A program made the translations under genes and the position numbers. A DNA stretch of 64,000 bases from Aplysia californica (taxonomy: Eukaryota), in the NCBI RefSeq assembly GCF_000002075.1, contig NW_004797308.1, forward strand, positions 2,050,317 through 2,114,316, read 5' to 3'. Below, one piece after another: positions 432 through 45,500 of the stretch; the stretch's first letter is position 1; each line of letters opens with the position of its first letter. The notes below the pieces were generated by a model, which was not told the origin of the DNA, searched no databases, and saw nothing but the letters and a program-made list of their open reading frames with translations.

Positions 432-3400
432 GTAAGTTCGGGCCAGATGGGGTCGCGTACGAACATTTCCTAAAATATTCATTTTTCAAATTAAATTAGA
501 ACCAGCCCTTAAGTAAACTAGGTGCAGTGTGTTGTCAGGACTAAGTTCTCTTTTTGCTGCTATTTGTCCTTCCTAAGAAAGCTAACCTGAGTTGGCAGGT
601 GATTGGCGGGTGCTCTGGTGTGTTTTGCTCCTTCTTTCCTATCTAATATCTATTGTCTTTATTTCTCTTCTATCTTTTTTGTTGTGTTTGTTACTATCTT
701 GTAACGCCTTTTATCTTCTGCACTTATATGACCTAGTTATGTTACAAGTGCTGTGAAACACTTACAAAAACGTGGTATACTAGAACAGTATATCGACTGC
801 TTAGTCCTTCTTCTTCAATTTTTAGTATTGTTGTTGTTGTTATTATTATTATTATTATTATTATGAGAACCTTTCATTGAAGGCTTACAAGGCTCCACTC
901 TTATCACTTTACTTGGTTGAACTTTTTGATTAGATGCCAAGAAGAGTTGTGGGAAAGTTGTTGACAGGAAATCTCTGGACTTTGTTCCCTCAGGGAGCTC
1001 ATGTTGAAAGTGCTGCTGAAAATCACGTCTGGCGTCCTGAAAAAAAATCCTCCGGAAGAGAGATACCGCACCCTGGGAGGTCGTCTGGCACAGCCCATTC
1101 TGCAGGTCGGTTACGTTTGTGTTGTTGCTTGTGCTCATTTGTACTTGTGTGATTATTATGTGGCAAATGAAGAATACCTTGTTGTTTTATATGGCACACT
1201 TTTAGTAAAACTGTATGTGTCATGACGTGGTGGAATCAGGGGCTCGTCAGTTTTTGGGCATGTGGAGTTATTGCTATCATCTAAAAGCTTATTCATTTGA
1301 CTTGCTTTCAATGAATAAAATCCTCCATCGATCTTGAATAGAAGTTTAGATATTTGTGATTGAAGGAGGTGGGCTTGCCTGATTTCAGTGGTAAAATTAA
1401 TGAGAAAATGGCCGCCAAAGTTTGGTAACTTCAATAGCTTGAGAGTCCTTGAAAACTGAAAAATGAGATATTCCGTGCCTTTAATCAAAGTTTTTCAGTC
1501 CAATACACATGGACATTTTTTAATTAAATGGACTTAAAAGGTGTTGTGTGGGAAAAAAAAATTTCGATAAAAAATTACTAAACTGGTGGAAAAAATGTCG
1601 CTTCGTTTTTATTATTTTGACGAGCGCCTGATTTCACCACGATGCCTCACATATTGACTGCTTGGTTTAAGACTCTGGGGTACGCCATTTTGAAAAGTGA
1701 CGTTGAACAGAGTCTTACACTGAGCAGTGGATATACTGTCTCTAGGGACCTGATATGCCTGAAGTGTTTGTTCCCAGAGACCCTAGGTATTTTTGTTAGT
1801 TTAAAGTACAGAGTTGTCCACTTAACCAAACATGGTTAGTCTGAAAACAGCAGTAAACCAAAAGAAAATGAACTCCTTAATTATTTTTTTTTTGGGGGGG
1901 GGGGAAGGAGGGAGGAGGTTCTTCACTATTTGAGGAATCTCTAACTTTAAGCCAAAAATATGATGGCTGAACCGAAGAAAATTGGGCAGTCCTGCAGATG
2001 TTGGTTTCCACGGACTTCACTCTACTTGTCTGTCTGTCTGTGTGAGTTGTCTGTGACTGTGCCAGTGAATGAAGCCAGAAGTGTATTATGTTATGTAGAT
2101 AAATACACTTCGTCATCTGGCACAAAAAGTAAACTGACTTTGCCACGGTGCCGCTTTCAGTCCAGCTGTGCATCGGCCGAGGGGTCAGACATTTCCTGTT
2201 TCTCTCTTTTTACTCTGTGTTACCCCTACATAATATGTTTATTGAATGTGGGTAGTTGGCGGGTGCTGTAGTGTAGTTTGCTCCTTCTTTCTTATCCAAC
2301 AAACATCTGTTGTCCTTTTCTCTCCTCCTCCTTTTCTTTGTGTTTAAGTAACAGCTCTACTATTTGGCATATATATGTCCTATATGTGCTGCAAGTCCTG
2401 TAGAATTCTTATTGTCTTTTTTCTATGTACAAACATATATATTTTCTCGTATATCTTACTCTCCAGTAACACCTGGAATCTTTGGCACTTATATGACCTT
2501 ATTGTATTGCAAGTGCCGTAAAACGCTTATTAAAACCAACCCCCAGACGCTGATCGTGACGTGGACGAAGGCCAACCTGAACGTGCTGGTGACGGCCTCG
2601 CTGTGGGACGAGTTCCTGGCCGTCCTCTCCTCCCTCACCTCCTGGAAGGAGTTGATCCACGAGTGGTCGGTACGGAATTATGATAAAAATATTAATAATA
2701 ATAGTAATAAATAGCTTTGTATAGCGCATAACCCTGCTCAACAGCAAGCTCTATGGGCTTCACAATCTATACTATTACCCCAGCAGACCGGAGAGCATTC
2801 GGAAACAACCTCAACTTCCTGGGAAGCATACAGTGCAAGCAGCTGATTGAGCGCTCAAACACTAACAAATTGACAAGGTCTTTCGCTCTCTATAGCTGGG
2901 TACCCCTTCCCACCTGGGTGAAGTGAGGAAAATTCGTGTAAAGTGCATTTCCCCAAGGACACAACGTCGGGCCCCTGACAGGATTCGAACCCATGACCAT
3001 ACGGTTGCGATTCTAAGAGCCTAACCACTAGGTCACCGACGCCAAACGTGCTCATGGGTTTTTTTCTACGCTGTGTCCAAGTTTTGATGGTCTATAAATT
3101 CTTCTCTGTGTGAAATGTGCAAGAGTTAAGTTTTACACCCCTACACCCCCTCACTTTTGACAACTTTCGTTCCATTCTCTCCTCCCTCACTTCCTGGAAG
3201 GAGTTGATTCACGAGTGGTCGGTATGTGCTCACAGGTTTTTTTTCTACACTGTGTCCAAAGTTTGATGGTCTATTCTTCACCATTCATGTAAAATTGGTA
3301 AGAGTAAAGTTTAACACCCCCCAACCCCTTGCTGTTTGACGAATGCCTTTCATTTCTTACCTCCCTTACTTCTCGGAATGAGTTGATGCATGAGTTGTCG

Positions 3401-6400
3401 GTACATATACGCACTGGTTTTTGTACACGCTTTGTGGGGTTCTTTCCAAGACGTCATGTGTCCAAGACGTCATGTGTCCAAGACGTCATGTGTCCAAGAC
3501 GTCATGTGTCCAAGACGTCATGTGTCCAAGATGTCATGTGTCCAAGACGTCATGTGTCCAAGACGTCATGTGTCCAAGATGTCATGTGTCCAAGACGTCA
3601 TGTGGGTAAAAGTAAAGTTTAACAGATGTTATCATGATAGGGGCATTACACCCACACATGTGCCAGTTTGACTTCTGTTTTAGCCCTTCATCTATGTTCT
3701 ACTTGTGCTGCTGTGTGACATTTCCCAGAAAACTATGGAGACGCTGACCCGTGTGTTGGCCAGACAGGTGTACGGCCTTGACCTGAATGACCTCCCCCTG
3801 GAGAGACTGAGCGAACAGAAGGAGAAGAGGAGGAGAGGAAGAGGTAACGGGAGTCCTTGCTTAAATTTTCTCTGTGGCAAAATAGTACCGCTCACTGTAC
3901 TTCAAATAAGGTGAAACCCATTTTTCATCTTCTAGTATGATTATTTGTAAAAAATCATAATAAAAAAAAAAAGAACAGTTAAGGTTTTAGGAAAAATTTC
4001 CAACTTTAACTGTTCTTTTTCTTGTTTAAAAAATAATTTGAGTGGCTCATGTGATGCACTCAGGAGACCTGACTTTCTCATCTAAACAGTTGTGAATGTG
4101 GATAAAACTTTGTATGGAGATTTTTAAAGGGAAGCTGCACTCCTTTGTGTTTATGTCTGTTCTTTGTCTTGAGTCGAGTTGGGGAAAAAAATAATTTCGT
4201 GAAACTGTGGAAATCAATTCTTGGGGGAATGAGTAAACAAATGTCATTCTTTCTGCGTGTGCAGAATCGACCAAAGGCAAGCCCTCCTCCTCCACCACCA
4301 CCTCCACCTCGGCCAAAGCCGTCCCTCGCTTGGACAAGAGTTTTTCCCGTGGCCTGAGCGGCAGCGACGGACATCCCATCAACCCGCTGCGCAGCTCCAC
4401 CAACAGCGCCCCCTCCCCCGAGACCTCGGCCTCCTTCGACCGGGGGACCAAGTACAAGAGTGATGGTCAGTGCCCGGTCAACCTGGTCAAACTAAGCCGG
4501 ACGTTGAAGGGGTTTGGGTACCTGGTCAACCTGGTCAAACTAAGCCGGACGTTGAAGGGGTTTGGGTACCTGGTCAACCTGGTCAAACTAAGCCGGACGT
4601 TGAAGGGGTTTGGGTACCCGGTCAACCTGGTCAAACTAAGCCGGACGTTGAAGGGGTTTGGGTACCTGGTCAAACTAAGCCGGACGTTGAAGGGGTTTGG
4701 GTACCTGGTCAAACTAAGCCGGACGTTGAAGGGGTTTGGGTTCCTGGTCAACCTGGTCAAACTAAGCCAGACGTTGAAGGGGTTTGGGTACCCGGTCAAC
4801 CTGGTCAAACTAAGCCGGACGTTGAAGGGGTTTGGGTTCCTGGTCAACCTGGTCAAACTAAGCCAGACGTTGAAGGGGTTTGGGTTCCGCATTTAAAAAA
4901 TCTCAAGACGACGGTCTAAAATGGAGATATAATTTTTGTCCGAAACTGTTGTTGAATCATTTAATTAACTGGAAATATTGAAGGTTTAAGAAATAAAGCA
5001 GTAGTTTTGACGTAATACTACTTTTACTTTGGTGACTTACAATAGGCCTTTTCACTTCGCTTGGTACCATAAAAGATTGTAGATCCAAGGATGTCTGAGA
5101 ACTCTACGAGACAGTATCGTACTAATTAAGTCAAATAGATTGTAGATCCAAGGATGTCTGAGAACTCTACGAGACAGTATCATACTAGTTAAGTCAAATA
5201 GATTGTAGATCCAAGGATGTCTGAGAACTCTACGAGACGGTATCATACTAGTTAAGTCAAATAGATTGTAGATCCAAGGATGTCTGAGAGCTCTACGAGA
5301 CAGTATCGTACTAATTAAGTCAAATAGATTGTAGATCCAAGGATGTCTGAAAACTCTAAGAGACAGTATCGTACTAATTAAGTCAAATAGATTGTAGATC
5401 CAAGGATGTCTGAGAACTCTACGAGACAGTATCGTACTAATTAAGTCAAATAGATTGTAGATCCAAGGATGTCTGAGAACTCTACGAGACAGTATCGTAC
5501 TAATTAAGTCAAATAGATTATACATGTCTAGATTTAGTCCTCATAGTTTTGTGTAACAGTAATTCATTTTTGGTATTATTTTCTGTCTGTCATATTCAGT
5601 GGGCGGAAATGTTTTTCAAAACTGAAAAACAGTGAGATATTTTAAAAGTTTGTAGAAAAATTTATAAGATGTCTGGTTGTTTTCCCGTTTTTGTCTTGAT
5701 GAGAGTGTTGATATTAAGTGGAAATTGTCCAAGATGGCCGCTCAATTTTCGTGGAGAAAAATTGTCCTCTTAGACAGGAGGGCGTCTTGGTCAGGGTAAA
5801 AATACTTGGGAGGGGGGATGGGAAGTGGCTGTTTGTACAGGTGATTGTCTTATACAGGTGGCAGTTAGAGCAGGCTAGAACAGGTTCGACCGTATTTGAA
5901 CAAGGTCCATTTTTTTTTTGGTGATACTTTAGGTGCAGGTGGAAAAGTGCGCCCGGATTTGTCCAAACAAAAGTCGTTGAGCGGGGAGCCAAGCCCGTCC
6001 CACTCGCGGTGCCCGTCCACGTCCACCGAGTGTCTGGTGCGCTCCAGCAGTGAGGGGAACATCGCCGCAGACCCACACGAGCTGCTGGAGAAACTGAGAG
6101 GTTTGTCGGAGACTTGTGATGTTTCTGGGAGACTCGCGATGTCTGTGGGAGACTTGTTATGTTTCTGGGAGACTCGCAATGTCTGACCCGACTTCCTGTT
6201 TGCTGATCTGGAAATGCGGGCAGAGCGGAACATGATAGTAGAATGTCGTCCTCATGACAAGAACGGCTGACCCAGAAAGAGTTACTTGTTCACGAGAAGC
6301 AAAAAAAAACCTTGTTGGATTCACTCTGCAGCAACCTGGCAGTCGACAGGTCGGCCAACTTTAGTTCTCACGTTGTTGGAGCATTTCTAGTCAAAATTCA

Positions 6401-9400: not shown

Positions 9401-12400
9401 GTGACCCGAGACATAGACACAGCCTTGAGAGTCCCTGTGACCCGAGACATAGATACAGCCTTGAGAGTCCCTGTGACCTTTGACCTATCCCTGGTGCATG
9501 TTTTTGTTTTCCTCTAACTGTTGCCCTTGATGCATGCCTCCTTGCAGCCTCCAATAGCCCCTGTGCCCCGGACGATGGGGACGAACAGACGGAGACGGAC
9601 TCAGATTTGGGCAAATCCGCAGCAAATGATCCGGGCGGTGTTGTCAGGTCCTCAGGTAATGCCACGACTCCTAGCTCGGTGCATGTGTGAGTCGATCCGC
9701 GTGTTTGAAACAAGTGCTATGTAAAGTATTGCAACACGTGTGAGTTTTTTCCCACGTCGTTGACACAAGTGCTATGTAACATATTACTACACCTGTGTGA
9801 GTTTATCCACGTGTTTGAGACGAGTGTCTAGCCACGTAAAGTGCTATGTAAAGTATTGCTACACATGTGTGAGTTTATCCTCGTCGTTGAGACAAGTGCT
9901 ATGTAACGTATAGCTACACATCGTTACGTATTACATGCCATGTAAAGTATTGCTACACCTGTGTGAGTTTATCCTCGTCGTTGAGACAAGTGCCCTGTAA
10001 AGTATTGCTACACCTGTGTGAGTTTATCCTCGTCGTTGAGACAAATGCTATGTAAAGTATTGCTACACCTGTGTGAGTCTATCCACGTGTTTGAGACAAG
10101 TGCTATGTAAAATATTGCTACACCTGTGTGAGTCTATCCATGTGTTTGAGACAAGTGCCATGTAAAGTATTTCTACAGGCCACGTGTGATGGTCAAGTCA
10201 ATGTATTGAGTGGGAGATTTCTCTCTCAGATTCACAGCTGTCAACCAGTAAATGAAAAAAACAGTTCGTACGGTTTTGAAGGTCTGACTTTGCCCGTCTG
10301 TTATCTAGTGTCACTCCTCTTGGAGTTGCTGATGCTCGGGAAAAAATGTCAAGAATAGATTTGCGAATGATAATGAGAATGAGTACCAAAAATCAATCAG
10401 AAAGGTGGTTTGAGCGCTGCAGGTCTGCTTGGAATAGCCTGCGTATGTTGAATGCTGAAAAGTGTGTGTGAAAGTTTTGAAGGGAGATTACTTGGCCAGT
10501 GTCGACCACGTGGGTAGAGTCTGGGATGTTTGTATGTTTTTTTGGGGTTGGGTTAAAAAAGTTGGCAGCTGTGTTTCTAGAGTGTGGATATTTTCCGACT
10601 ATGTTTGCAGGAATGTAAATAACCACAGCTCTGTCTGCGCTCCGTGCTCACAGCGTGGTTTGTGTGGTCGGTGATCACGCTTAAGAGTGCCCCGCACAAT
10701 GCCACATACAGTTTGTGCACTCATTGACTTGTTCATCATGTTTTTCCGTCTTTCTTTCCCTATGCTTGAGATTTTTTCACATTTCTCCGAGCTCAAAAAT
10801 TGCTCACGCTGTAGATTTTTTAAAAACAAGGATACTGTCAGCGACCGACTTTTGCAAGAACGTTTTACTTTTTTAATCTTGTCTGTCGTTTTAATTGCAT
10901 GTTAGGGTCTGATAGTTTTGTTCTGCGTGTTCTCCGTGATTGTCAAGAGTGAATCCTCCTTAGCTGAGTGGTCATTCTTGTGTGTTTTTGAATACTTTGC
11001 CTTGGGTTCGTTGAACGTGCTAGTTTTTGCAACCCTAGCATGGCCCACGGGGATGGAATGGCATGAGTTGATGTGTGTTTTGGAAATATTTTGTTTTGGT
11101 GTGGTGAAATTTTTGTGTAATGTTCTTACTGTCATTTTTAGTTTACAGATGTACAACTTTGTTCAGCCTTTATGAGTTTCATGCAATGTTTGATCAAACC
11201 TGGGTGAAGATCGCGAACTATGTAATGAAGTGGGAAGATTTCCGTCTCTCGCTGCTTTGGAGGTCCCTTTTTTCTGTTTGAAGCCCAAGTATAAATTTAC
11301 CCCCCCCCCCCCCCCCCCGGGGCAGTGCCACTGACTGAAGTGTCTTTAGGCCATTCCCGAAGGGGGGAGATATCTCGTTCAAGCATAGTAGAATTGTAAA
11401 TGGGCTGACTCATGTCACGCTCATAACTGTGCCTGATCTACAACAGGGAACTGCTGCTTTTTCTTTCCTGATCCTTACTATTGTCATTTTCCTCTACTTC
11501 TTTTGTATGTTTGTCACTCCTTTGTGACCGGCTATTTTGGGGTGCCTTGATAGTCGAAGCAGACCTTGTGCTGCTGAAGCTAGAGAGGTGAGCAGTCTAA
11601 GTCTGATTCCCTGTAAAGACTTCTCTGTTGACACCCACCCCTTGGCGCTCATATGACCTTATGCAGTTGCGAGCGCCGTAAAACCCTCTACTATTAAAAA
11701 TAAATAAATGAAAAAGTATAAATTTCCCCCGGAGATTAGAGGTGTTACAAGAGAGTAACAAACACAAAAAAGGAGGAGGAGAGATAAAGACGATAGATGA
11801 TTTATAGGAAAGAAGAAGCAAACCACACCGGTGCACCCGCCAACCACCCACTGATGTGTGTGTGTGTCCAGGTGTGTGATGTAGGCATGTTGTGACTGCG
11901 TGTACACTCTGTGCGTGTGTGTATGCGTCCCCAGGTGCTAGCGCAGCGGTGGAGGACGTGGAAGTGGCAGAGATCACGACCACGTGCACGGCCGAGCTGA
12001 GCAGCATGATGGGGCCACACTCGGTCGTACGACAGTCCAGCCTGGAGGAGGGATTTGACCGCTCAGACCACGACATGACCAGAGGTAGGGACACCTGGCT
12101 ACTTGTGTGGGTTTTTTTGACCGATCGGACCACGACATGACCAGAGGTAGGGACACCTGGCTACTTGTGTGGTTTTTTTTGACCGATCGGACCACGACAT
12201 GACCAGAGGTAGGGACACCTGGCTACTTGTTATGTTGTTTGGGTTCCTCTGAAGGAAAAATGAGACAAGTATTGCAGTCGAATGTTATTTAAATAATCTT
12301 ATATTGTTATCATCATCAACACCCTCGTCATCATTATTATTTTTATTATTATTGTTATTGTTGTTAGTATTATTATTATCATTAGTTGGTATCATGTTGG

Positions 12401-12767
12401 ACTATGTAGAAGGTGGCTCTGGTTCGAATCCCAGACTGGGTGTTTTTGAACTCGGGTCATTTTGAAGAGTTTTCACAGTTAACACTTCTAATCTCCGGCA
12501 CTTATAATATGACCTTATTGTGTTGCAAGTGCTGTAAAACTCTTACTTAAACAATACATTTGTTGTGGCCAGGCACAGGGTCAAGGACATCGTCGGCCTG
12601 CTCCATGCACTCGGCACGGTCCAAGTCTGGCAGCCGCTCCCCGTCCCCGCCCCTGCTCAACTCAACGGACAATCACAAGGACAGCCCCACCCCGGACAGA
12701 GACTCGCTGCACATCGACATCACGGGGCCGGAGGATGCCAACAGTAACAGAGGTCTGTGTGTGTGTC

Positions 12768-12807
<40 letters not shown>

Positions 12808-12984
12808 TGTCCTGTTGTCTGTGTGTGTCTCATCGGACAGAGACTCGCTGCACATCGACATCACGGGGCCGGAGGATGCCAACAGTAACAGAGGTCTGTG
12901 TGTGTGTCTCAGTGTGTCGCGTTGTCTGTGTGTGTGTCTCATCAACGGGCTAGAGGATGTCAACAGTAACAGAGGTCTGTTGTC

Positions 12985-13070
<86 letters not shown>

Positions 13071-16000
13071 TGTTGTCTGTGTGTGACTCATCGGACAGAG
13101 ACTCCCTGCACATCGACATCATGGGGCAGGAGGACGCCAACAGTAACAGAGGTCTGTTGTTTTGTTTGTGTGTGTGTGTGTTTCAGTGTGTGTGTGTGTG
13201 TGTGTGTGTGTCTCGGTGTGTCGAGTTTTCTGTGTGTGTGTGTCTCACAGTGTGTCACGTTGTCTGTGTGTGTCTCAGTCTGTCACCTTGTCTGTGTGTG
13301 TGTGTGTCTCATATGGCACTTGATGATATTAAAATTTATTTTATTATGCAATGGTTTTCAGTCAGATGTGTTTTCATGTCACGTCCAGGTTTAGAAGTGT
13401 CCGTGGACTCCCTGGATGAGCTGAAGAGCATCATGGCGGGCGGGAAGGTGCTGGGCTGGACGCCGGACGTGGCCGTGGTTCTGTGGCAGAGGATGCTGGG
13501 AAGTCTGGGCGACGTCAACAAGATGGAGGACCCAGACATACACTTCTCCGTCTTTGACGAGCTGGCTGAGCTCATGGACACGCTGTGTCGGGTCAGTTCG
13601 CGTGTCGCGTGTGTGTCTTGTGTGTGTCTGGTCAATCCGTGTGTTGTGTGTCTTGTGTGTGTGTCAAGACACATATATATATATATATATATACAACTCC
13701 ACGTGAGACACACGACACGCGCAATGATCCGACACATTAAATGTTCCACAGAAATAGAACCAAGAGTTTTGTGGGTGGTTGGCCGGTGCTCTAGTGTGGT
13801 TTGCTCTTTCTTTCCTATCAAACATGTATGGTCCTTATTTCTCCTCCTCCTTTTTTGTGTAATGTTACTCTCTTGTAACACATTCCTAATCTATTCTTCA
13901 GGACTTATATGACCTTATTGTGTTGCAAGTGCAGTAAAACTCTTACTAAAACTAGTTAACCAAAAGGTTTGACGATTGTCTTGTCGTGTTTCCTTTGCAG
14001 ATGAGGGACAACCTCGGGGTGACCCCGGACAACATCAATTTTAATACTAATTTTATGATTTTTAGTCGATTTAGTCATTTTTAATTAATGAAAATACCTT
14101 TCGCAGTCTTTATTTGTAAAAATAAATACATTTTATAGGCAAAAAACCACATCAATTTCTATTGTATTCATATTTACGAAGTCCTAATGCATGAACTGCT
14201 GGGAGTTAATGAACTATATTTAGATTTGTTGTGAAAACACAATGTACTGTTTATGTGTTACTGTTGTATTGGTAAAACGCTCAGTGCCTGTGTTTTTTAA
14301 CACTTTACCATAACAAGGAAACAGAGTGAAAAACCCTTGGCTCCACATACCACTGAGGTGAATCACAAGAAAATTAGGGTAGCTCAGAAATATGTTTATT
14401 TCTTTATAACCAGAGCATGTAACGACATGAAATTTTCAGGATGGTCATAAAAGATAACAAGCTATCGGGCTGCGAAAAAAAAAATCTTGTTACATAACAA
14501 TGGCGGCTATTTTGAAAATGATAATAAGCAGTTTACCAAAACATACCCCAAAAATTGCCTTCAGACCCATCTACATAGGACCCAAACACACCAAATAAGA
14601 CACATAATACACCAGAATGTTGATTTGACCATCCATTTCCAATAATATCCAGAAAAAATTATGAAAAGACACATTTAGCAGTTGACGAGAGGCATTGTAA
14701 AAAGGTACCAGAGTGACCGAAACGGAGGTCAATTTCAGAGGAAGAGGGTGTGTCAGCAAAGAGCATTTTTTTCAGTAACGAGTAAATAAAAGTCAATAAA
14801 ATTACACACACATTTAGACAATTGAACAAACTTTTAGATGACGCAAAGAAAATTATTATCTCATGAACATGGCGGCCATTTTGAATAATAATTAGCTATT
14901 TTTCAACAAAAAAAAGCAAAAAAATTAGTTTTACACTCAAAATATAATGTTCAAATACACTAACCATTCAATATCATTTGCAAAAATGTTCATTTGAATA
15001 TCCTTTTTCAAAATAAACAACAAAAAAATTATGAAAAGACTCATTTAGCAGTTGACGAGAGGCATTGTAAAAAGGTACCAAAAGTGACGAGAACGGAGGT
15101 CAATTTCAGAGGAAAAGGGTGTGTCAGCAAAGAGCATTTTTCTCAGTAACGAGTAAATGAAAGTCAATAACATTACACACACAATTAGAAAATTGGAAGT
15201 AGGAATCAAAAGAGACAATACCCTTGAATCAGGGCACAGGGCAAGAATTATGGAATTAGAATATATTGTCATGTTGTGACATGGTAAAAGTTTAGATGTG
15301 TGGTGACTGCGGTGTTTGTTGTGACTTGATCATGCATGTGACATGTGACTGCTTTGGAGTAATGTACAAAATATAAAAAAAACCCAACTCACTGCGACAT
15401 TTATAATCCAGAGAATAATTCACACACAGCACAGAGAATATTACACATCCAGCTGCTGCCGCGCCTGCTTTATGTCAGCGGCAGTATGAAAGATCTTGAA
15501 ACACTCTCTGTCCACACATAGAGCAGTGTTACACTGTGGGCAGTAGTGCCGAGTCTGTGACCGCTTCTTGATCGACGCACACACTTTGCATACTGGGCGA
15601 TGCTTCGGGTCGGCATACTTGATAGGAAAATGGCCGAATGCTGCTGCGGAGAGTCTGTCGACAGTTGGATTTTGCTGAGCTCTCGACTTCCCTCGGCGAA
15701 CTGCCATATACGGCTTCACGAGAGCGTCAACCACAGCACACCTAAAGTCTTTCACACTCACCGAACTTTCACTCTGTTGTAAGATGTGTGCGTTCACCAA
15801 GCAAGCGTCTTTGATGTAGTGCCACAGGGCCAGGTACCACTTATAATTCCTGTGGGGATAAGAATAATTTTTGTGGAGCTGATCAAAATGATCAACTCCA
15901 CCCATGAAAGTATTATAGTTATCAGCCAGAACTGGCTTCTCTACCCTCCTGAATCCTGTGGCTTCCTTTGCAGAACGAATTCTCTTGTCAACAGTGTTGT

Positions 16001-19000
16001 TGGTGTGCACAGTGCTGAGCAGACAGACACGCTTGGTGTCATGCCAGGCCACCGCGACCATGTCACCTGACCTCTGAAAAACAGGATCGTCACCTTTCTT
16101 TAGTGGCAGGGCAGTTTTCTTGAGACCGGCAGGAAACCCCCTCCTGTTCTCCATCACCGTTTCCACAGCTCCTGTTCCTCTCTCCTGTAGACTAAAAAAA
16201 AGCGATGGCGACGAATAAAAATTGTCCATATAGAGGACATGCCCACTGTCCATGTAGTCCCTCATGAGAGTCTCAACTAAATGTTGGGTAAACGATTTAC
16301 CTTGGGGAACGGGGAAATGGTCCTTGCCGGTGTACACAACCAGATCTAGACAGTAGTAGTTAGTGGAGTCGCAGAGGTTGAAGCACTTGAAACCCCGCTT
16401 CGTGGGCTTATCCGGCATGTACTGCCGAAAATGGCACCTACCCTTGAAGCGGGCCATACTTTCGTCGATGCTGAGCTTCTTGTGGGGGTAGTCGCACGCT
16501 GAAAATCTGGGTATGATGAGTTCCAGCAGTCTCCTGATCTTCTGAAGAGGGTCGTAACCGTCTGTCCCTCGAGGAATGTGTTGACGAACATCGCTAGGAC
16601 AAAAAAGGGAAAAAAAAAGAAACAATAGGATAAGTAGTTGATATAGGAAAAATAACACACCTGGAAATACCTGAAGAACTTTGATTTGAATTAGATTCAG
16701 TATGATAGTATGACGCTAATCTCTTCTGTGTGTTTCTCCCTGCTAGAACTCAGGGATAGTCCACTACTCTGCTTCTTCAACCTGCAGTGTAATGACTTTT
16801 ACAAATATTTACCCTTTTTACTAGATCTACTTTGTCGGGTCCATTGCCTTCACGCAAGAATTTATTTTGAATTTTACCAGATATCGGCCGAAGTATTATG
16901 ATAATGATTACTATTAGAAAGAATCAATCTAGATCTAAGTCACACTATTCACACAAAGGTCAGCCTAAAATATACTAGATCTAGAATTTATTTTGTAGTG
17001 ATAAGGGCTTAGGACAGCATTCAGCATGACTAAAAGAAGAAAGTTTTTGTCAGGCCACACGATCAACATTCGCTTGATCGCTTTGATCAAAATAACTAGA
17101 ATGTTCTTGATAAAAATAAGCTAGATTCTAGATCTAGATCTAGTCTATAGCTTCCCAACACAATCCCAAAGGTGGCAAAGGTAGTTATTTACCTGAAGTG
17201 GAAAAACGCTGACAGCATCTTGAAACGGTGACGTGACATCACCTCACGAAAGTTCACGTCCACCAACCAGAACGAACTCCAGTAGTCGTCGAGACTTGGT
17301 TTGGGGTTCAACCCCATGGCGATTTGCAGACCAATGTACGCCTTCATTTCATCTGCATTTGTTTCAGTCCACCTCTTCTTATAAAAATTTCCCTCCGGCA
17401 GTTGTTCAAGGCAGTGGGCTGCGTACTCGTTAGTCTCCTGGACAAGAAGTCCGATTACATCAGTTGTGATGAACAAAAAGAAAAAGTTTATGGCACTGAA
17501 GCCGGTCAAATCAACGGTAGAGCCTGACCTGTGCTCGAAGTTAGGGATCCAGTCACTAACGTATGGATCCCTGTCATCGTAGAGATGCCAATCAGAGGGA
17601 ACTGTGTCCTGTTGAGTGACTGTAGCTGTAGGTCGAAGTCTAGATCTAGGCCTAGCACTCGTCGTCGCCTGACCGTCCTCGTGGGGCGCTGATGTAGACA
17701 AACCAGGGCCTCGGCTTGTCAATCCAGATCTAGAATCTACACTAGATGATGATGAAGGGCGATCTTGCTCACTATTCCACGAAATATCGCTTACATCGTC
17801 AGGAATAGAGTCTCCAGAGTCACTATCTTGGCAGAACACAGCACCGCTGTTCGGCGTAGTTGGGGCGCTCATGTTGGACGTGTTTTCACTTCGACAAACG
17901 AGCAAGAAAGTGACGAACCGACGCTTTGTTTCCCGCAAAATTGTTCACAAAGGACTCGGAAGTAAACAGAAATAATAAGGAGTGCGCATGTCTCAAAAGG
18001 GGAGCTACTATAATGAACTTGTGGTCACTACTCTGTTACTAAGGTACACATCGCCGATCGGCGGGATGAGACCCGAGACGAACTACTTCCGGCTCGCCGA
18101 TCGGCGGGATGAGACGGAAAAGTGTTTATCAAGGTTGAGCGCCACTGAAATATTGTTTATTATTATCATTGGTAGTAGATGTTCCGCAGAAATATAACCA
18201 TAAGGTTTGACGATTGTCTTGCTGTGTTTTTCCCATGCAGATGAGCGACAATCTCGGGGTGACCCAGGACAACATGTCCTCCCCTCCCCCGCCTGAGCTC
18301 ATACCCCCGCTACATATCTTCTCCTCCTGGCTGTTCCAGGTAAGCTGTGGGTGGTTGGCGGGTGCTCTGCTGTGGTTTGTTCCTTCTTACCTATTGAACA
18401 TCTGTCGTCTTTATCTCCCCTCTTTCTTTTTTGTGTTTGTTACTCTCTTGCAACACCTCTCGTCTTCGGTACTTATATGACCTTATTGTGTTGCAAGTGC
18501 CGTAAAGCACTTACTAAAACAAAGACATATACTGTCCATCTCTTTACTTCTTCCTTTCTTTGTATGTTGTTACTCTCTTGTAAGACCTCTTGTCTTTGAT
18601 ACTTCTGTGACCTAATTATTTTTCAAGGGCTGCAAAACTCTTACTTAGGCTGAAATTGTATGCCAGTGTTACCCAAATTTCCCACATGATGAATAAGATT
18701 TCTTTCTCTCTTTCTTTCTTTCTTTCTTTTTCTCTTATTTATTTATTTATTTATTAGTTTATTTATCTATTTGCTTATTTGTTTATTAGTTTATTAATTA
18801 ATTTATGTATTTATTTATTTACTGATTTACTCACTCATTTAGTCAACGCCTCTCTCCCCGCAGTGCCTGACCCTGAGCAACAAGTTCAAGCACGGCAAGC
18901 TGATGGCCTACCAGCTGATCTGTCAGATGATGCTGCGGAGACACGAGGTCATGCCCTCCCAGCAGCTGCTCTCTCACTTCTACCTGGTGCTGCACACGGG

Positions 19001-20788
19001 GCTGGTCTCTGCTGATCAGGTGAGTCACACACCACACACACAACACACATACAACACACAACACGGGGCTGGTCTCTGCCGATCAGGTGAGTCACACACG
19101 CTGCGTCAGCAACACACGCACCACACACAACACAGACACACACACTACACACACACAGGGCTTGTCTCTGCCGATCAGGTGAGTCACACACCACATACAA
19201 AACACAACACACAACACGGGGCTGGTCTCTGCCGATCAGGTGAGTCACACATCACACACACAACACATACACAACACACAACACGGGGCTGAGTCATACA
19301 TCAAACACACCACACACACACACACGGGGCTGGTCTCAGCCGATCAGGTGAGTCACACACCACATACACAAAACACACCACACACATACACACCACACAC
19401 ACGTGGCTGGTCTCTGCTGATCAGGTGAGTCACACACCACATACACAACACACACCACACACATACACACCACTCACAGGGCTGGTCTCTGCTGATCAGG
19501 TGAGTCACACACCACATACACCACACACACCACACACATACACACCACACACACGTGGCTGGTCTCTGCTGATCAGGTGAGTCACACACCACATACACCA
19601 CACACACCACATACACAACACACACCACACACATACACACACACAACACATACACACACACAACACACAAACACCAGACACACAGGGCTGGTCTCTGCCG
19701 ATCAGGTGAGTCATACATTACACACACACCACACACATACACACACACAACACATCCACACCACTCACAGGGCTGTTCTCTGCCGATCAGGTGAGTCATA
19801 CATTACACACACACCACACACATACACACACACAACACATCCACACCACTCACAGGGCTGGTCTCTGCTGATCAGGTGAGTCACACACCACACACACAAC
19901 ACACACCACACACATACAACACACACAGGGCTGGTCTCTGCTGATCAGGTGAGTCACACATGCTGCGTCAGCAACACACGCACAATACACACCACACACA
20001 TACACACACACAACACATCGCACCACACACGGGGCTGGTCTCTGCTGATCAGGTGAGTCACACATGACACACACCACACACCACACACACCACACACACA
20101 CCACCCAAACGGGAGCTGGTCTCTGTCGACCAGGTGAGTCACACACACACACACCGCACACACACACACACACAACTCACACAACACACCACACACACAA
20201 CACATAACACACACACCACACATACACACCACACGCAGGGCTGGTCTCTGCTGATTGGATAAGTCACATACACTGCCAACAACATAATGCTGAAACAGCC
20301 ACAACACTGAAATTCAAATAAGATCTTCACCTCCTACATTATCGCCGCTATCATCGTCAAAGACGTCGTTTACTCATGGCAGCAAACTTTGTCTTTTGTT
20401 TCGACTTGACGAAGAGAAAGAAAACTTTCAGTAATGTTTAGTACAAGTAATATTATGATGCCCACATTTTCTCCAAAATTCAGTTTCGACTCTTATTTGA
20501 ACATTAAAAGGAAAAGGAATATAGCACCAAACAAAAAGTATTATGTTGAATTTGCAGCTGAGAAGCTGGAGCCATCCATGGTGGGATAACAAATCTGTTG
20601 GAGTAGGTTTAATCTTTAGAAAGTTTTCCTTCATTTTGTTTTGTTTTGTTTTTCAGGATATTGTGAACGTTCTAGTCCGGGACTGCGGTCCCAAATTTTT
20701 CTCCCTGTGTCTCCCCGGCTGTCTGTTGTTGACCCTGGACTTCATCAAAGCTGCAGGCAGCATCATCTCTGCCGTGGACTACAAGGAG
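358..20788 (+). CDS. RALGAPA1: Ral GTPase-activating protein alpha subunit (RALGAPA1/2-like), partial gene; 13 coding exons seen, N- and C-terminal parts outside the window or lost at the gap
   Basis: Phase-compatible AG/GT exons at 358-431, 994-1105, 2547-2669, 3729-3843, 4265-4465, 5933-6100, 9548-9655, 11935-12084, 12573-12752, 13389-13591, 18241-18339, 18864-19019, 20657-20788. The joined peptide has [103 protein letters not shown] and DNLG..PELIPPL, recognised from memory as RalGAP-alpha motifs. Confidence 0.92.
994..1105 (+). CDS. RALGAPA1: RALGAPA exon ([11 protein letters not shown]...[12 protein letters not shown])
   Basis: ctcag|G...CAG|gtcgg; phase 2-0. Confidence 0.88.
2547..2669 (+). 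CDS. RALGAPA1: RALGAPA exon ([13 protein letters not shown]...ELIHEWS)
   Basis: cccag|ACG...TCG|gtacg; 41 codons. Confidence 0.9.
2676..3043 (-). mobile_element. tRNA-derived SINE with CORE-like central block and L2-like tail
   Basis: Minus strand: A-box-like GGTGACCTAGTGG, B-box GGTTCGAATCC, GTGTCCTTGGGGAAA, tail TATGCGCTATACAA followed by (TAT)n. Related copies at 20821-20952, ~44255-44410 and ~56935-57050. Confidence 0.75.
3446..3603. repeat. Minisatellite, 16-bp unit CCAAGACGTCATGTGT, about 10 copies
   Basis: Direct inspection. Confidence 0.95.
3729..3843 (+). CDS. RALGAPA1: RALGAPA exon ([13 protein letters not shown]...EKRRRGR)
   Basis: cccag|AAA...GAG|gtaac; phase 0-1. Confidence 0.9.
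4265..4465 (+). CDS. RALGAPA1: RALGAPA exon (STKGKPSS...[10 protein letters not shown]...KYKSD)
   Basis: gcag|AA...ATG|gtcagt; phase 1-1; DKSFSRG motif. Confidence 0.82.
4473..4888. repeat. Minisatellite, 48-bp unit (with 39-bp variants), about 9 copies, starting just after a donor
   Basis: GGTCAACCTGGTCAAACTAAGCCGGACGTTGAAGGGGTTTGGGTACC(T/C). Confidence 0.95.
5074..5523. repeat. Minisatellite, 63-bp unit, 7 copies
   Basis: AGATTGTAGATCCAAGGATGTCTGAGAACTCTACGAGACAGTATCGTACTAATTAAGTCAAAT. Confidence 0.95.
5933..6100 (+). CDS. RALGAPA1: RALGAPA exon ([16 protein letters not shown]...RSSSEGNI...EKLR)
   Basis: ttag|GT...GAG|gtttgt; phase 1-1; GC-rich coding-like island. Confidence 0.75.
7718..7902 (+). 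repeat. Dispersed ~180-bp element family A (representative copy); others at ~596-770, 2247-2537, 11725-11851(-), 12478-12552, 13771-13954, 18346-18650, 23730-23902, 38825-38996, 43480-43643, 53021-53198
   Basis: Shared GTGGGTGGTTGGCGGGTGCTCTGGTGTGG head, pyrimidine-rich body, stem-loop tail and TAAAAC end. Confidence 0.85.
8639..9480. repeat. Minisatellite, 33-bp unit, about 25 copies
   Basis: GACCC(G/T)AGACATAGACACAGCCTTGAGAGTCCCTGT; source of the spurious repetitive ORFs at 8584-9713. Confidence 0.95.
9548..9655 (+). CDS. RALGAPA1: Probable RALGAPA exon, low complexity, possibly alternative ([21 protein letters not shown]...)
   Basis: cttgcag|CC...CAG|gtaatg; 108 nt, phase 1-1, open frame; no recognisable conserved motif. 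Confidence 0.55.
9683..10175. repeat. Degenerate minisatellite, ~57-bp unit, about 8 copies
   Basis: GAGACAAGTGCTATGTAAAGTATTGCTACACCTGTGTGAGTTTATCC. Confidence 0.9.
11320..11700 (+). repeat. Dispersed ~380-bp element family B; others at ~24800-25165(-), 33122-33285 (partial), 52140-52510
   Basis: Shared GGCAGTGCC.CTGACTG..CATTCCCAAAGGGGG..GATAGTCGAAGCAGAC..CACCCCTTGGCGCTC body and the same stem-loop tail as family A. Confidence 0.85.
11935..12084 (+). CDS. RALGAPA1: Probable RALGAPA exon ([12 protein letters not shown]...[18 protein letters not shown])
   Basis: cccag|GT...GAG|gtaggg; 150 nt, phase 1-1. Confidence 0.7.
12573..12752 (+). CDS. RALGAPA1: RALGAPA exon (TGSRTSS...SRSPSP...[15 protein letters not shown]...NSNR)
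   Basis: ggccag|GC...GAG|gtctgt; 180 nt, phase 1-1. Confidence 0.8.
12987..13068. repeat. (GT)n microsatellite
   Basis: Direct inspection. Confidence 0.95.
13389..13591 (+). CDS. RALGAPA1: RALGAPA exon ([33 protein letters not shown]...)
   Basis: tccag|GT...CGG|gtcagt; phase 1-0; strongly conserved RalGAP-alpha motif. Confidence 0.92.
14036..18124 (-). mobile_element. piggyBac-family DNA transposon in a RALGAPA intron; only one candidate end recognisable
   Basis: Contains the transposase gene. Right end has two TCGCCGATCGGCGGGATGAGAC repeats and ends ...GGAAAAGTG|TTTA (degenerate TTAA?); no matching left TIR seen; internal ~170-bp direct repeat at 14655-14825 / 15025-15195. Confidence 0.75.
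15441..17872 (-). CDS. piggyBac (PGBD4-like) transposase, 2 exons (17872-17193 and 16593-15441), 610 aa
   Basis: GT-AG intron 17192-16594 joins FHF-S-DVRQ in frame; DDD motifs [14 protein letters not shown] and MGGVDHFDQ; C-terminal Cys-rich domain CKVC..HYCPQC..LC..CFKIFH. Confidence 0.88.
18241..18339 (+). CDS. RALGAPA1: RALGAPA exon ([33 protein letters not shown])
   Basis: atgcag|ATG...CAG|gtaagc; 33 codons. Confidence 0.88.
18864..19019 (+). CDS. RALGAPA1: RALGAPA exon ([20 protein letters not shown]...[10 protein letters not shown])
   Basis: ccgcag|TGC...CAG|gtgagt; 52 codons. Confidence 0.9.
18993..20270 (+). repeat. Tandem array of RALGAPA exon end plus donor (GGCTGGTCTCTGC(T/C)GATCAG|GTGAGTCAC) interspersed with CA-rich tracts
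   Basis: About 13 extra near-perfect copies plus 2 degenerate ones. Confidence 0.95.
20657..20788 (+). CDS. RALGAPA1: RALGAPA exon ([21 protein letters not shown]...DYKE)
   Basis: tttcag|GAT...GAG|gtcagt; 44 codons. Confidence 0.9.
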
Positions 20789-20820
20789 GTCAGTTACCTC
20801 ATGGGAGGATGATAGTTTGT

Positions 20821-20952
20821 GGCCACGGTGGTCTAGTGGGTAGGCTGCTAGGCTTGCAAGGGAAAAATTGTGGGTTTGAAACTTGTCAAGGGCATGAGCT
20901 TGTGTCCTTGGGAAATGCGCTGTTCATGAATTTTTCTTACTTAACCCAGGTG
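20821..20952 (+). mobile_element. tRNA-derived SINE, 5' part (same family as 2676-3043)
   Basis: GGTGGTCTAGTGG..GGTTTGAAAC..GTGTCCTTGGGAAATG..ACCCAGGTG. Confidence 0.6.
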
Positions 20953-22489: not shown

Positions 22490-22747
22490 CTGTTTCCTGA
22501 ACGCCACAGCAGCACCAACAGGAGGAATCTGAGCAGTGGGCATGGGGGGGAATGGGGCAGGCTTGGGTTCAGCGGGAAGAGGCGCCTCCCCGCGCAGCTG
22601 CCGCTCCAGTTCAGCGGCGGTCAGCACCTGAGGCTTCTGGTGCTCTCGGGCTAGCATGCTGTGCTCAATCTCTGCCAAAGTGGGGACCTCCGGGGGCAAA
22701 GGCATTGACGGTGCTGGGATGGGCGTGGACCTCGCATCTTGAAACAC
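22490..22747 (-). CDS. PATL1: PATL1 exon (VFQDARST...VPTLAEIEHSM...VLTAAELERQL...FRKQ)
   Basis: cttag|GTG...CAG|gtatc; 86 codons, Pro-rich. Confidence 0.82.
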
Positions 22748-34700: not shown

Positions 34701-35699
34701 ATTTGATCGTCTTCAAAGATGCTATGGCTATTTCACTGTTCGAATCGAGCCGAACTACGCGGGTCGCCATTTTGTTTTGCCCGGAAGTTCTCGCAAGATC
34801 TACTCCTCCCCTCTCTCTCTCTCTGAATACTGTCTATCGGTGTGGACGATCAAATTGACCAAAACAAAGTTAAAAAATGATGTTAAAACACAAAAGTAAA
34901 TTAATTTGGTTTGTCTACAAAGATGCTACGGCTATTTAACTTTTCGAATCAAGCCGAACTACGCGGGTCGCCATTTTGTTTTGACTGGAAGTTCTCGCGC
35001 TACTCCTCTCTCTGTCTCTTTCTCTCTCTCTCTCTCCACTGCCCACATACAAAATTGTACGCTTTTAGTTTTAGTAGGCTACAGTTGTAATGGAACGTTT
35101 GTTCACGGCACAGAATTCTACAATTTTTCTGTTATCACAGTGTAGGCTAGAATTCTGTGGTTTAGGGTGAACGCAAAATTTGTTGGCCTAGATCTACTAG
35201 GCTATAACGGTGAACGCGCACCGGGTGAGAATAGCCAAAAGACTAGCCTGCCCCGGGTGAGAATAGAGGTGGCCATAGATCTAGATTCTTTCTAGACCTC
35301 TAGATCTAGATTCTAGATCTAGATGATCTAGATTTAGATGTAGATTTCTAGGTCAGGCTCAAATAAGGGGGGTGGGAACTAGCCTACCAAAAAAGCACCG
35401 TACTATGACCCTATGACCATAGAGTATGCACCTCCTACAGATCTATGGTGTGCATGCAAAGTGCAGTTGGGCAAGGCAATGTTATTGTTATCGAAATAAC
35501 GTCAGTGTGAAATTTGATGGTATTTGTCATTGATAAAACGAACACACGTTGAAGATTAGATAAATAAAACATGAAATGACACATATGTAACAACGGAAGC
35601 CATAAGTTAGAGAAGTATGCTTTAAATAATCATAATTAGGCCAAGTAAACTGATTTCACTTACGGAAAACATCCTATCGGCGTCGCGCGACAATGCCAT
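22490..35699 (-). CDS. PATL1: Protein PAT1 homolog 1 (mRNA decapping activator), N-terminal part, 7 exons; the rest is missing toward the gap
   Basis: Minus-strand exons 35699-35664, 31194-31083, 27664-27510, 26750-26664, 25975-25901, 23439-23311, 22747-22490, all phase-compatible. Motifs LDED..EEEFDILNDETFG (Pat1 N-terminal DDX6-binding region), DYDWEDEHKRLA and the TLAEIE / LTAAELERQL helices. Confidence 0.85.
23311..23439 (-). CDS. PATL1: PATL1 exon (ASSAGKNIWGSPS...RDFPG)
   Basis: tccag|GCA...GGG|gtgaga; 43 codons. Confidence 0.78.
25901..25975 (-). CDS. PATL1: PATL1 exon (AQRQSHLDELFGPNSPPGYMELEGL)
   Basis: cacag|GCC...TTG|gtgtgt; 25 codons. Confidence 0.72.
26664..26750 (-). CDS. PATL1: PATL1 exon (DELERSIRRLVVEDHD...GQPIPG)
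   Basis: aatag|GAT...GGG|gtgagt; 29 codons. Confidence 0.78.
27510..27664 (-). CDS. PATL1: PATL1 exon (DYDWEDEHKRLAKELE...STIQE)
   Basis: caccag|CT...GAG|gtaaga; phase 1-0. Confidence 0.85.
27940..29993 (+). mobile_element. Internally deleted Chapaev-type (CMC; RAG1-N-terminus-related) DNA transposon in a PATL1 intron
   Basis: CACGGCGT...ACGCCGTG termini, 4-bp TSD GTGG (27936-27939 / 29994-29997), second TIR block CAGCG(A/C)TCTTTTAGTT, degraded transposase inside. Confidence 0.8.
28481..29290 (+). pseudogene. Degraded Chapaev-type transposase: N-terminal Chapa/RAG1-like Zn motif fused by deletion to the C-terminal catalytic-E region
   Basis: With frameshifts: H.ESLNGLCRVC..YGIDVRDE..ANICVKCF (H-x7-CRxC..D..CxxC), then KVIPKPHI..QHCIPHIQQH..LGLLGEQDTESSHQ. 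Confidence 0.72.
31083..31194 (-). CDS. PATL1: PATL1 exon (ALGAGKLDEDINQLIQAPEEEEEFDILNDETFGDLGD)
   Basis: gtgcag|GCT...G|gtaac; NDETFG motif. Confidence 0.88.
35664..35699 (-). CDS. PATL1: Probable PATL1 first coding exon (MALSRDADRMFS)
   Basis: ATG in aaacATGG context, 12 codons, then a consensus donor TCC|GTAAGT; phase 0 matches the next exon; CpG-rich promoter context. Confidence 0.6.
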
Positions 35700-42500: not shown

Positions 42501-45500
42501 AATAATGATTGAGCAGGTCAAGCAGCAGAGTCTGGTGGCTAAAGACAACGCTCTACAGCAGCAGAGGGCACAGATGGACAAGGAGAGGCAAGAGGTGAGA
42601 CTGAGGGAGGGAGGGGGGAGGGAAAGTGTGAGAAATTAAGAGGGCACAGAGAGACAAGGGGTGAAACTAAGGGAGGGAGGGAAAGCGTGAGAGAGAGAGA
42701 GAGAGGGGGGGGGGGGGCACAGAGAGACAAGAGGTGAGACTGAGGGAGGGAGGGATAGTGTGAGAGATTGAGAGGGCATAGGAGGCAAGAGGTGAAACCG
42801 AGGGCGGGAGGGAAAGTGTGAGAGATTAAGAGAGAGAGGCAAGAGGTGAGGCAGAGGGAGGGAGGGAAAGCGTGAGAGGTTAGGAGGGAGAGAGAAAGAG
42901 GAAACAGAGAGGCAAGGGGTGAGACTGATGGAGGGAAAGCGTTAGAGATTAAGATAGAGAGAGGGGGGGGCACAGAGAGGCAAGAGGTGAGACTGAGGGA
43001 GGGAGGGAAAGTGTGACAGATTGAGAGAGATAGATTTTTTGGTGGATAAAGGCAATGCTCTTACAGCAGCAGAGGGCAGAGCTGGACAAGCACAGACAAA
43101 AGGTGAAACAATATGAGATATAGAGGGAGAGCTTGAGGAATGAGAGGGAAGGTGTGAAAAGGGGAAGGAAAGAGTTTGTCTGGTAGCTTAGTTAAGACAG
43201 TACTCTACAATAGTAGAGGACACAGGATGAGAGTGGGAAAGACAAATCATGTGTAGCTTATTGTGAAATAAAAGTAAAAAATACCTTGAGAATACAATGC
43301 AGTCTCATTTTGATAAAAAATGTGAGATGCTGTTATGCTAATTCACTGCTGGAGGAGTGAAAACTAGGCAAAAGAATGGGAGCGCCTTAGTTGGGGAGGG
43401 GGGGGTTTAGCGCTAAATTTGTTTTGGCATTACTAATGTTTGCTTGTTCCTCAAGATCTAAGAAAAACATTAAGCAAGGGCACTCTGGTGTGGTTTGCTC
43501 TTTTATATTCATCAAACATCTGTTGTCCTTATCTCTACTCCTACTTTTATTTGTATGCTACTCCCTAGTCTCACCTCTAAACTTTGGCACTTATATGACC
43601 AAATCGTAGTGCAAGTTCCGTTAAACTTTTACTAAAGCTAAACTTTTAAGATGAAATATTTGTCCTCAATGTATCCATTTTGAATGCTGATATCCATTAC
43701 TTTCCTTCTCCCTTGTGCCTGTGTACAGGCTGTCAATACCATGAGGATGGAAGCCTCGATGAAGCTGTCGCGGGTGGTAATGGAAGAAAGAACTCAGAAA
43801 GAAATAGCTGTGCAGCAAGCGTTGGCACAGGCGCGACACGACAGTGTCAGTGTCATCTCTGCAGATGACAAGGTCAGTAGGTCCTTTACGGTTACAAAAT
43901 CTGATAATTACGCTTTATATGATACAATAGTTTTGATGCCCATAGGTGTCGGGTAGACCAGCGTCTGTGATGTAGCAGTTTTAGGTGCTTTGCTGTTATG
44001 CACAGAAAATCAAAGTTCGTTTCCTGTATGGAGAGAATTTTTTTGAGTTTCTCGCTCTTTCAGCTAGGATGTCGTTTCCTCCTCAGCCCAGGTTGATCCC
44101 AACTGGCAGGGTTGAAGCCCTCCTAATTTATCTAAATTGAATCGATTTGAAGGAGGGGTGGCTTTAAAAAAACACCTAGATTAAAAGAATAAATAAATCA
44201 ATGCTTCAGTTAGGCGGCGCTGTACTAGTTCATATTGTTGTGATGTTAGTTACCAAGTGGTCACACTGCTGAACTCGCACCCATACGTTCATGGGTTTGA
44301 ATCCTGTTTTGGCCCCAGTGTTGTATCCTTGGGAAAGGCATTTGACACAGACTTTACTCCGTTAGCCAAGGTGAAAGATCTTGTCAGTTCATAAGTGTTT
44401 GAGTACCTGTCTAATTCTCAGAAAGCTGAAAATGTTTTGGAATGTTACTGAGTCTGTTTGGGGTAATTGTAGATTGTAAAACGCATTGAGGTATACTTTC
44501 TAGTAGGGATAAGCANNNNNNNNNNNNNNNNNNNNNNNNNNNNNNNNNNNNNNNNNNNNNNNNNNNNNNNNNNNNNNNNNNNNNNNNNNNNNNNNNNNNN
44601 NNNNNNNNNNNNNNNNNNNNNNNNNNNNNNNNNNNNNNNNNNNNNNNNNNNNNNNNNNNNNNNNNNNNNNNNNNNNNNNNNNNNNNNNNNNNNNNNNNNN
44701 NNNNNNNNNNNNNNNNNNNNNNNNNNNNNNNNNNNNNNNNNNNNNNNNNNNNNNNNNNNNNNTTTAATAAATGTTCTCATGTAGAAATTCTATTTGTCAA
44801 CTGACTTCTTAATGAGCTCACTTTTTCAATTACAAGTAGTTCCCTCAAAGTCTTATTTTAAATATTGCGAAGAGCTCAAAAGAATTTTCAACTTCTTCGC
44901 TCTCCATTCTGAAGAGATGAATAAACTTTGTTTTTTCTCTCTATAAAGTTCTTTTCTTTTTGTATGTTGTGAAGAGATGAAGAGATTTTATGCGTTATGA
45001 AGAGGTGAAGCCTTTGATCGAGTAAACAGAAACAAGCTATGGAAGATCTTTGAACAGTACGACATCAAGGGACTACTGCTAGACAACATTAGGGCTATCC
45101 ATGCCAACAGCAGAAGCGCAGTCAGCACTACCAGTGGAACATCGGACTGGTTTCCAGTAACATTCGAAGTCAGGCAGGACTGCAATCTCTCCCCCTCTGC
45201 TCTTCGTGATCTACATGGACCAGATGACAAAGGAGGCCAATTCAGACCCAGAGGCACTCAAAGAACTCATGTTTGCGGACAACCTAGAAATGATGAACAA
45301 CGAGACTCAACTACAGGAGCGTATAAACCAACTAAACGCGAGTTGCGAGAAGTATGACGTAAAGATCAGTGTTAGCAAGACTGAGGTCATGACAGTAAAC
45401 AGGAGACCGGACAAAGCGGATATCAACTTCAATGGATCCCAACTAGCAAATTCAAATACTTGGGCAGCATTTTCACAGAAAGCAGCAAATTAGATCGAGA

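Follow-up and report, generated by a model that had tools for sequence, protein, structure and literature searches.

Tandem arrays copying exon ends and splice donors into introns of RALGAPA and DEAF1 in the sea hare Aplysia californica

In a stretch of 64,000 nucleotides (nt) from Aplysia californica contig NW_004797308.1 (this whole stretch is the window below), several exons of two genes, RALGAPA and DEAF1, are followed by introns that carry tandem copies of the exon's own last nucleotides together with its splice donor. How do such arrays come to lie at exon-intron junctions, and how is a donor chosen when many are on offer? We hypothesize, with a probability of about 60%, that they are boundary minisatellites, or 'mirages' as known from amphioxus, which arose by local duplication at microhomologies, turned over as variable number tandem repeats (VNTRs), and passed a splicing filter that keeps the first donor and the last acceptor. 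Arrays of this kind are already known as single loci; what is new here is a rough count, an orientation, a donor bias, and a clustering by gene.

Arrays at the donors of RALGAPA and DEAF1

The window holds 12 RALGAPA exons at 994-20788, whose translation corresponds to residues 600-1181 of the RefSeq protein P0009, and a DEAF1 exon chain whose translation equals RefSeq P0274 at 490 of 490 residues. Using a 20-nt probe across each donor (at least 15 of 20 matching, within 2.5 kb on either side), we identified donor-spanning copies at 6 of the 19 donors of these genes, every copy lying downstream, and no copies within 2.5 kb of any of the 19 acceptors in the window. These are the six donors named in the original prediction, recovered with copied exon end and donor where it had placed them (Table 1; copy numbers are as assembled). 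The further arrays that it had put at or near donors (4473, about 6100, and about 9683) have edges at +0 of donor 4465, -5 of 6100, and +25 of 9655, and an additional edge lies at -8 of donor 13591. An array thus starts between -66 and +25 of the donor in 8 of the 12 RALGAPA introns of the window.

At the six donors, about 12-66 nt of exon are copied along with the start of the intron, and the units follow head to tail with minisatellite-sized periods of 62, about 73-85, 54-72, and 179 nt, those at 12752 being irregular. Microhomology was seen by eye at unit starts in two of the three cases inspected. The copies of the 2669 donor are detached from their exon by 552 nt. The probe at donor 42594 found 8 copies between 42660 and 43153. 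GT is kept in 13 of 14 copies at 19019, all 13 as strong as the real donor, and in one of the two clear copies at 41953. The original prediction that distal copies are more decayed is borne out at the far ends of the arrays at 2669, 19019, and 41953, where the last copies are clearly the most worn, but not by any steady rise with distance: Spearman coefficients of -0.08 (14 copies at 19019), -0.03 (42594), and 0 (12752) rule out a distance-decay gradient across array copies.

The consistent polarity that had also been claimed holds for all donor copies in the window, but an acceptor-side copy (13957-14035) is present as well, upstream of its exon. This echo, which the RefSeq models do not take up, now lies 4.2 kb from its exon because a DDE transposon inserted between them. 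The insertion, at about 14036-18120, contains a 370-nt stretch in duplicate and, close to one of its ends, a direct repeat of 22 nt; a search of it for terminal inverted repeats found no clear ones.

It is highly improbable that the arrays are assembly artefacts, such as collapsed or stuttered haplotypes. The copies have diverged from one another and from the exon (14-22 of 22 positions matching), bear later insertions, and contain the exon end only, and the array at 41953, as well as the final units of that at 42594, is also represented in contigs from a second sample. Across 11900-14000, 0.79-0.92 of the sequence words are present in four DNA runs, which may be the assembly's own source. An artefact would nonetheless fit a fragmented assembly, in which RALGAPA runs on to another scaffold, and some kilobase-scale duplicates in the intron sample described below that are identical at 22 of 22 positions at about 1.8 kb. 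It would also fit one second-sample contig in which 42582 is followed directly by 42975, so that 392 nt of the 42594 array are missing, with 33 letters that fit both sides; either a collapse in the assembly graph or a shorter allele may explain the gap.

Table 1. Exons, junction arrays, and the transposon-split acceptor echo, in window coordinates
Feature	Position	Strand	Remarks
RALGAPA exon	2547..2669	+	Exact match to RefSeq P0009; donor after 2669 weak, score 2.2
Two 179-nt units, each ending in a copy of the last ~45 exon nt + GT	3048..3403	+	Copy donors 3221, 3400
48-nt minisatellite from the donor after 4465 onward	4466..4893	+	No exon part in copies
20/40-nt array	6096..6188	+	Edge ~5 nt within exon ending 6100; marginal mirage
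55-nt minisatellite	9681..10178	+	Begins 25 nt past the donor after 9655
RALGAPA exon	11935..12084	+	Authentic donor after 12084; RefSeq match
62-nt tandem unit x2.9 across donor	12052..12240	+	Identical spare donors 12146, 12208, both out of frame
RALGAPA exon	12573..12752	+	Authentic donor after 12752; RefSeq match
Array of exon end (35-60 nt) + donor + TG tract	12687..13301	+	Spare donors 12893, 12974, 13151, all in frame, stop-free
Short TG-rich array	13584..13651	+	Edge 8 nt within exon ending 13591
Acceptor echo: upstream copy of intron end + AG + first 35 nt of exon 18241-18339	13957..14035	+	88-91% identity
DDE_Tnp_1_7 transposase (piggyBac-like), two open frames	15441..17944	-	Within the insertion parting echo from exon
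RALGAPA exon with authentic (last) acceptor copy	18241..18339	+	P0009 and Physella, Elysia, Biomphalaria orthologues match this copy
RALGAPA exon	18864..19019	+	Authentic donor after 19019, score 12.5, top 5% of donors
Largest array: ~27 exon nt + donor + CA-rich tract	18993..20268	+	14 copies (19086-20258)
DEAF1 exon	41844..41953	+	Authentic donor after 41953; exon chain = P0274
Old, decayed donor-spanning array	41919..42265	+	2 clear copies, 42200 and 42275; also in second-sample contigs
DEAF1 exon	42463..42594	+	Authentic donor after 42594
GA-rich donor-spanning array	42531..43106	+	About 7-8 copies, last with ~60 exon nt

Junction arrays in a wider sample of introns

The original prediction had proposed comparing tandem repeats at donors, acceptors, and random intron positions across the genome. 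We made such a comparison in about 1.9 Mb around dynein heavy chain, myosin, kinesin, SNF transporter, adaptin, and TCP1 genes, together with the rest of RALGAPA. Introns were retained if the spliced junction peptide aligned with a homologue on both sides, which gave 619 introns outside the window (608 kb), with only 4 and 16 from the adaptin and TCP1 families. A copy was defined as a 22-nt window matching at 18 or more positions within 1 kb; low-complexity windows and dispersed repeats were excluded, the latter by a mild 16-mer mask (a 13-mer version stripped about half of the sequence), and 608 donors and 613 acceptors were scored. Iterated ab initio exon calling had drifted into introns and was replaced by these homology-validated junctions.

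The 619 introns contained 30 donor-spanning, 16 acceptor-spanning, one whole-exon, and 251 intron-internal arrays, which puts the frequency of spanning arrays at about 5% for donors and 2.6% for acceptors in the sample. Probing with reversed sequence gave no copy at any of the 608 donors or 613 acceptors, and the arrays are therefore not due to chance. Donors exceed acceptors by a ratio of 1.93 (gene bootstrap 1.04-4.03; 30 versus 16, p = 0.054). Copies were downstream only at 19 of the 608 donors and upstream only at none, and upstream only at 10 of the 613 acceptors and downstream only at 2; this mirror-image polarity is as survival predicts, since coding sequence is left intact. Array edges 60-120 nt inside exons were at 0.18 and 0 per kb versus 0.75 in introns, and the splice dinucleotide was kept in 61 of 74 donor copies (GT) and 6 of 10 acceptor copies (AG). 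The original prediction had offered either a mutational process focused on junctions or a survival bias; the polarity supports the latter, and the former is only modestly supported, at 1.6-fold against the intron interior.

The strength of the enrichment depends on its baseline. Relative to intron interiors, the density of array edges was 1.59 in the last 60 exon nt (confidence interval, CI, 1.03-2.22), 0.90 in the first 60 exon nt (0.48-1.39), 2.12 in the first 60 intron nt, and 1.71 in the last 60 intron nt, while relative to the whole-intron mean the two exon values were 1.05 (CI 0.62-1.52) and 0.60 (0.32-0.94). In a junction-window form bootstrapped over genes, donors gave 1.89 (1.01-3.07) and acceptors 0.98; the first such figure (donors 22 of 608 versus 12.1 expected, p = 0.006) was set aside, as it included kilobase-scale duplicates and ignored gene clustering. 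There is thus a modest exon-proximal excess with a roughly twofold donor bias; junction arrays as such are not confined to donors. The source copy of a junction array is conserved and cannot be deleted, and this, together with fewer tolerated deletions near exons, could by reasoning raise counts up to about twofold in the absence of a hot spot. Array age cannot separate a hot spot from slower loss, because median identity is 0.84 for exon-proximal and interior arrays alike.

A possible but doubtful alternative is that some genes, which are CpG-rich and likely lie in high-recombination or low-methylation domains, undergo mutation focused on the ends of exons and the starts of introns, with selection doing no more than trim the products. 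Such mutation could stem, for instance, from R-loops or the edges of exon nucleosomes, where breaks are repaired or lagging-strand flaps are processed with errors. Junction-array frequency tracks the observed-to-expected CpG ratio of exon ends (rho 0.62, 15 genes), and a further 38 genes gave the same trend (rho 0.39, p = 0.016; 8 of 158 versus 2 of 174 junctions), but CpG was one of five covariates considered post hoc, and this weak replication comprises only 10 events. In genes with an exon-end ratio of at least 0.5, array starts are 2.46-fold in exon ends (CI 1.52-3.92) and 2.46-fold in the first 60 intron nt, against 0.99-fold and 1.89-fold in genes below 0.5; RALGAPA is CpG-rich, at 0.65-0.70. 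Purely intronic arrays also cluster at intron ends (donors 34 versus 18.2 expected, acceptors 27 versus 18.2). Yet the few young arrays have no junction excess (2 versus 1.6 and 1 versus 1.6 among 15), and the exon-end ratio of 1.05 against the whole-intron average speaks in the same direction. Within mirage-bearing genes, exon-end CpG is alike with and without a mirage (0.55 versus 0.51). Mirage frequency did not track third-position GC content (GC3; rho 0.35, p = 0.20), while intron repeat fraction and raw intron GC track it in a partly circular way, and junction arrays become more frequent as intron-internal array density rises (rho 0.55, 19 gene groups, p = 0.016). Applied to the sea hare, the alternative would have CpG-rich genes undergo duplication aimed at exon ends and intron starts, RALGAPA-like genes gain arrays at most donors with ordinary interiors, and splicing order remove about half of the acceptor cases, a scenario that we regard as unlikely.

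Several observations weigh against our preferred reading of local duplication followed by a splicing filter. Even when the density of internal arrays is taken into account, junction-array counts in 15 genes are overdispersed (permutation p = 5e-5), and uniform duplication plus survival therefore fails to explain the gene clustering; four dynein genes have arrays at 0 of 302 junctions and another dynein gene (on C752) at 7 of 24. RALGAPA is rich in arrays outside the window (5 of 44 junctions versus 38 of 1160, p = 0.018), and within it the donor ratio reaches 12-fold, two-thirds of its introns (8/12) having an array at the donor, at an ordinary interior density of 0.57 per kb; given a rate of 4.5%, 6 of 22 window donors has a probability of 3.3e-4. 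AG is retained in 4 of 8 acceptor copies and GT in 16 of 21 donor copies, a difference that is not significant (p = 0.21), and donor choice at these genes is read from gene models. Moreover, the sample consists of five chosen families plus RALGAPA, 415 of its 619 introns being from dynein heavy chain, and favours conserved, well-assembled exons. The window is best read as the upper tail of the genome sample. RALGAPA is an extreme CpG-rich gene that was picked for being extreme; its excess comes partly from the selection of the window and may in part reflect a gene-level, junction-focused process.

Individual loci in the sample include four neighbouring RALGAPA junctions with echoes at C282:3218-6311, two on the acceptor side and two on the donor side (5 and 10 matches), and a myosin gene on C479 in which one donor has 25 tandem copies. 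Near-identical whole-exon duplicates 1.3-2.4 kb apart occur in kinesin on C128 and in SNF, adaptin, and TCP1 genes on C1081, C618, and C369; these may be haplotype artefacts or recent segmental duplications.

Splice-site choice, mechanism, and known parallels

At every array, the RefSeq proteins P0009, P0273, and P0274 are spliced from the first donor, and of the two acceptor copies they take the last. P0009 is probably transcript-derived, because its model bridges two scaffolds. Copied donors are absent from two of the three RALGAPA cluster members examined and from the single DEAF1 protein, and gastropod orthologues have no insertion at those array junctions that were examined. As copy donor 3221 scores above the real donor at 2669, and the 13 copies at 19019 equal theirs, strength alone cannot choose among the sites, and order likely does. 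First-donor preference has been demonstrated experimentally for human F7 (PMC1557585), and by analogy with that case, together with the gene models and orthologues, the first donor is likely still used in these arrays. Three raw poly(A) RNA runs were uninformative on donor use, as they placed just 5, 6, and 11 reads within 39500-44400, hardly any of them over DEAF1 exons and none across a splice joint.

The original prediction had suggested that the arrays create banks of decoy or alternative 5' splice sites, a claim left unsupported by the first-donor use of the annotated proteins and by the copies themselves, most of which would shift the frame or meet a stop if used. Copies 12893, 12974, 13151, and 19178 are in frame and open. 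That such banks were selected, as isoform ladders, for U1 recruitment, or as CA/TG splicing enhancers, is very unlikely. The three copies after 12752 would extend a low-complexity region, but three in frame has a chance of 1/27 among many arrays inspected. A top-strength donor is preserved in 13 copies of the 19019 array. GT retention outside the window is near the expectation from 87% flank identity. Two pseudo-sites are used in human 6-16 and CBS (PMC1557585); against selected use in the sea hare stand array lengths that may differ between samples. The arrays are most likely tolerated rather than functional.

We hypothesize that a mirage begins when a stretch of 60-200 nt is duplicated by slippage or unequal exchange, which 3-5 nt microhomologies and TG, CA, or GA tracts would aid. 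The pair would then expand and turn over as a VNTR, leaving its edge units to decay, as amphioxus and human arrays suggest. Selection would purge duplications that disturb coding, which may account for the observed persistence of copies downstream of donors and upstream of acceptors. Echoes of acceptors reach only about half the frequency of donor copies, likely owing to competition from an AG that lies upstream. The last element of the model is the roughly twofold density of duplication edges observed within 60 nt of junctions and their clustering in CpG-rich genes.

The original paper on amphioxus Adh3 is reportedly that of Canestro in 2002. Amphioxus 'mirages' are described in passages of PMC3087553 and PMC3902484 for Adh3, the globins BflGb6 and BflGb9, PGBD5, and TnC. 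In those passages, as in the sea hare, minisatellite-like tandem copies lie across the exon-intron boundary on donor and acceptor sides, many but not all copies keep GT or AG, and several junctions per gene are affected. Normal splicing is apparently undisturbed there and edge units are more diverged; somatic length instability is described for the Adh3 mirage. The sea hare differs in being a gastropod, in having arrays at the donors of 8 of 12 neighbouring introns of one gene, and, as far as those passages go, in that frequency, donor/acceptor ratio, and gene clustering were counted here (619 introns).

Human donor-spanning VNTRs include those of F7 intervening sequence (IVS) 7 (37 bp), CBS IVS13, 6-16, lamin B2, and PDGF intron 4, and in three of these, F7, lamin B2, and PDGF, splicing uses the site farthest upstream (PMC1557585). 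The first unit lies across the donor and is followed by identical pseudo-donors, as in the sea hare; the human cases are single loci, whereas about 5% of sampled sea-hare donors are involved. The exon part is 15-66 nt here against 4 nt in F7, and sea-hare units are often irregular, with TG, CA, or GA tracts. First-donor use was shown by experiment for F7 and is read from gene models, not transcript assays, here. A further likeness is to intron gain, where internal tandem duplication also multiplies splice signals; unlike in that process, no new intron or exon has formed in the sea hare, and the copies are intronic in all gene models examined. Such gain by tandem duplication of proto-splice sites was reportedly proposed by Zhuo in 2007 and by Gao and Lynch in 2009.

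A literature search with thin subscription coverage, supplements excluded, found no report of molluscan mirages and no genome-wide donor/acceptor count, which does not disprove that they exist. The contribution of this analysis, a preliminary one, is a frequency (about 5% of donors, 2.6% of acceptors), an orientation that spares coding sequence, a preference for donors of about 2:1, and strong gene clustering. If the pattern extends to the whole genome, it gives a measure of the protection that the order of splice sites affords against duplicated junctions, and it suggests that minisatellites in an invertebrate are born under the influence of a regional driver. If the CpG-focused process were true, thousands of natural tandem-donor and tandem-acceptor arrays would allow the rule that the first donor and the last acceptor win to be tested in vivo. 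More practically, boundary echoes mislead gene predictors and read mapping, and an exon predictor called spurious exons within the 12752 array.

The scaffold break, neighbouring genes, and other repeats

RALGAPA halts in the window at exon 20657-20788, and its next exon lies at C282:20-207, at the start of another scaffold; RefSeq has two models, P0273, which is truncated and lies on the window's own scaffold (C38), and P0009, which is complete and lies on C282. Soon after 20788 the assembly must be either broken or mis-joined. Minus-strand exons at 22485-31200 head towards this break point and belong to a gene that we take to be PATL1/Pat1 (the single exon scanned had no Pfam match); no boundary arrays were found at three introns of this gene that were tested.

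Minisatellites independent of donors are present at 3445-3604 (16-nt unit), 5068-5527 (63), 8639-9487 (36), and 34624-34998 (204). Between the end of the 36-nt array and acceptor 9548 there are 60 nt, and the 204-nt duplication sits between the starts of two divergent genes. In or behind DEAF1, a decayed reverse-transcriptase-like fragment (45000-46020) and a second transposase-like region (48400-49760, minus strand) were recognized by eye. Many window introns also contain, every few kb, a dispersed repeat of about 190 nt that is likely a short interspersed nuclear element (SINE)-like element, for example at 590-760, 7718-7890, 13770-13950, 18346-18520, 23730-23890, and 38825-38990.

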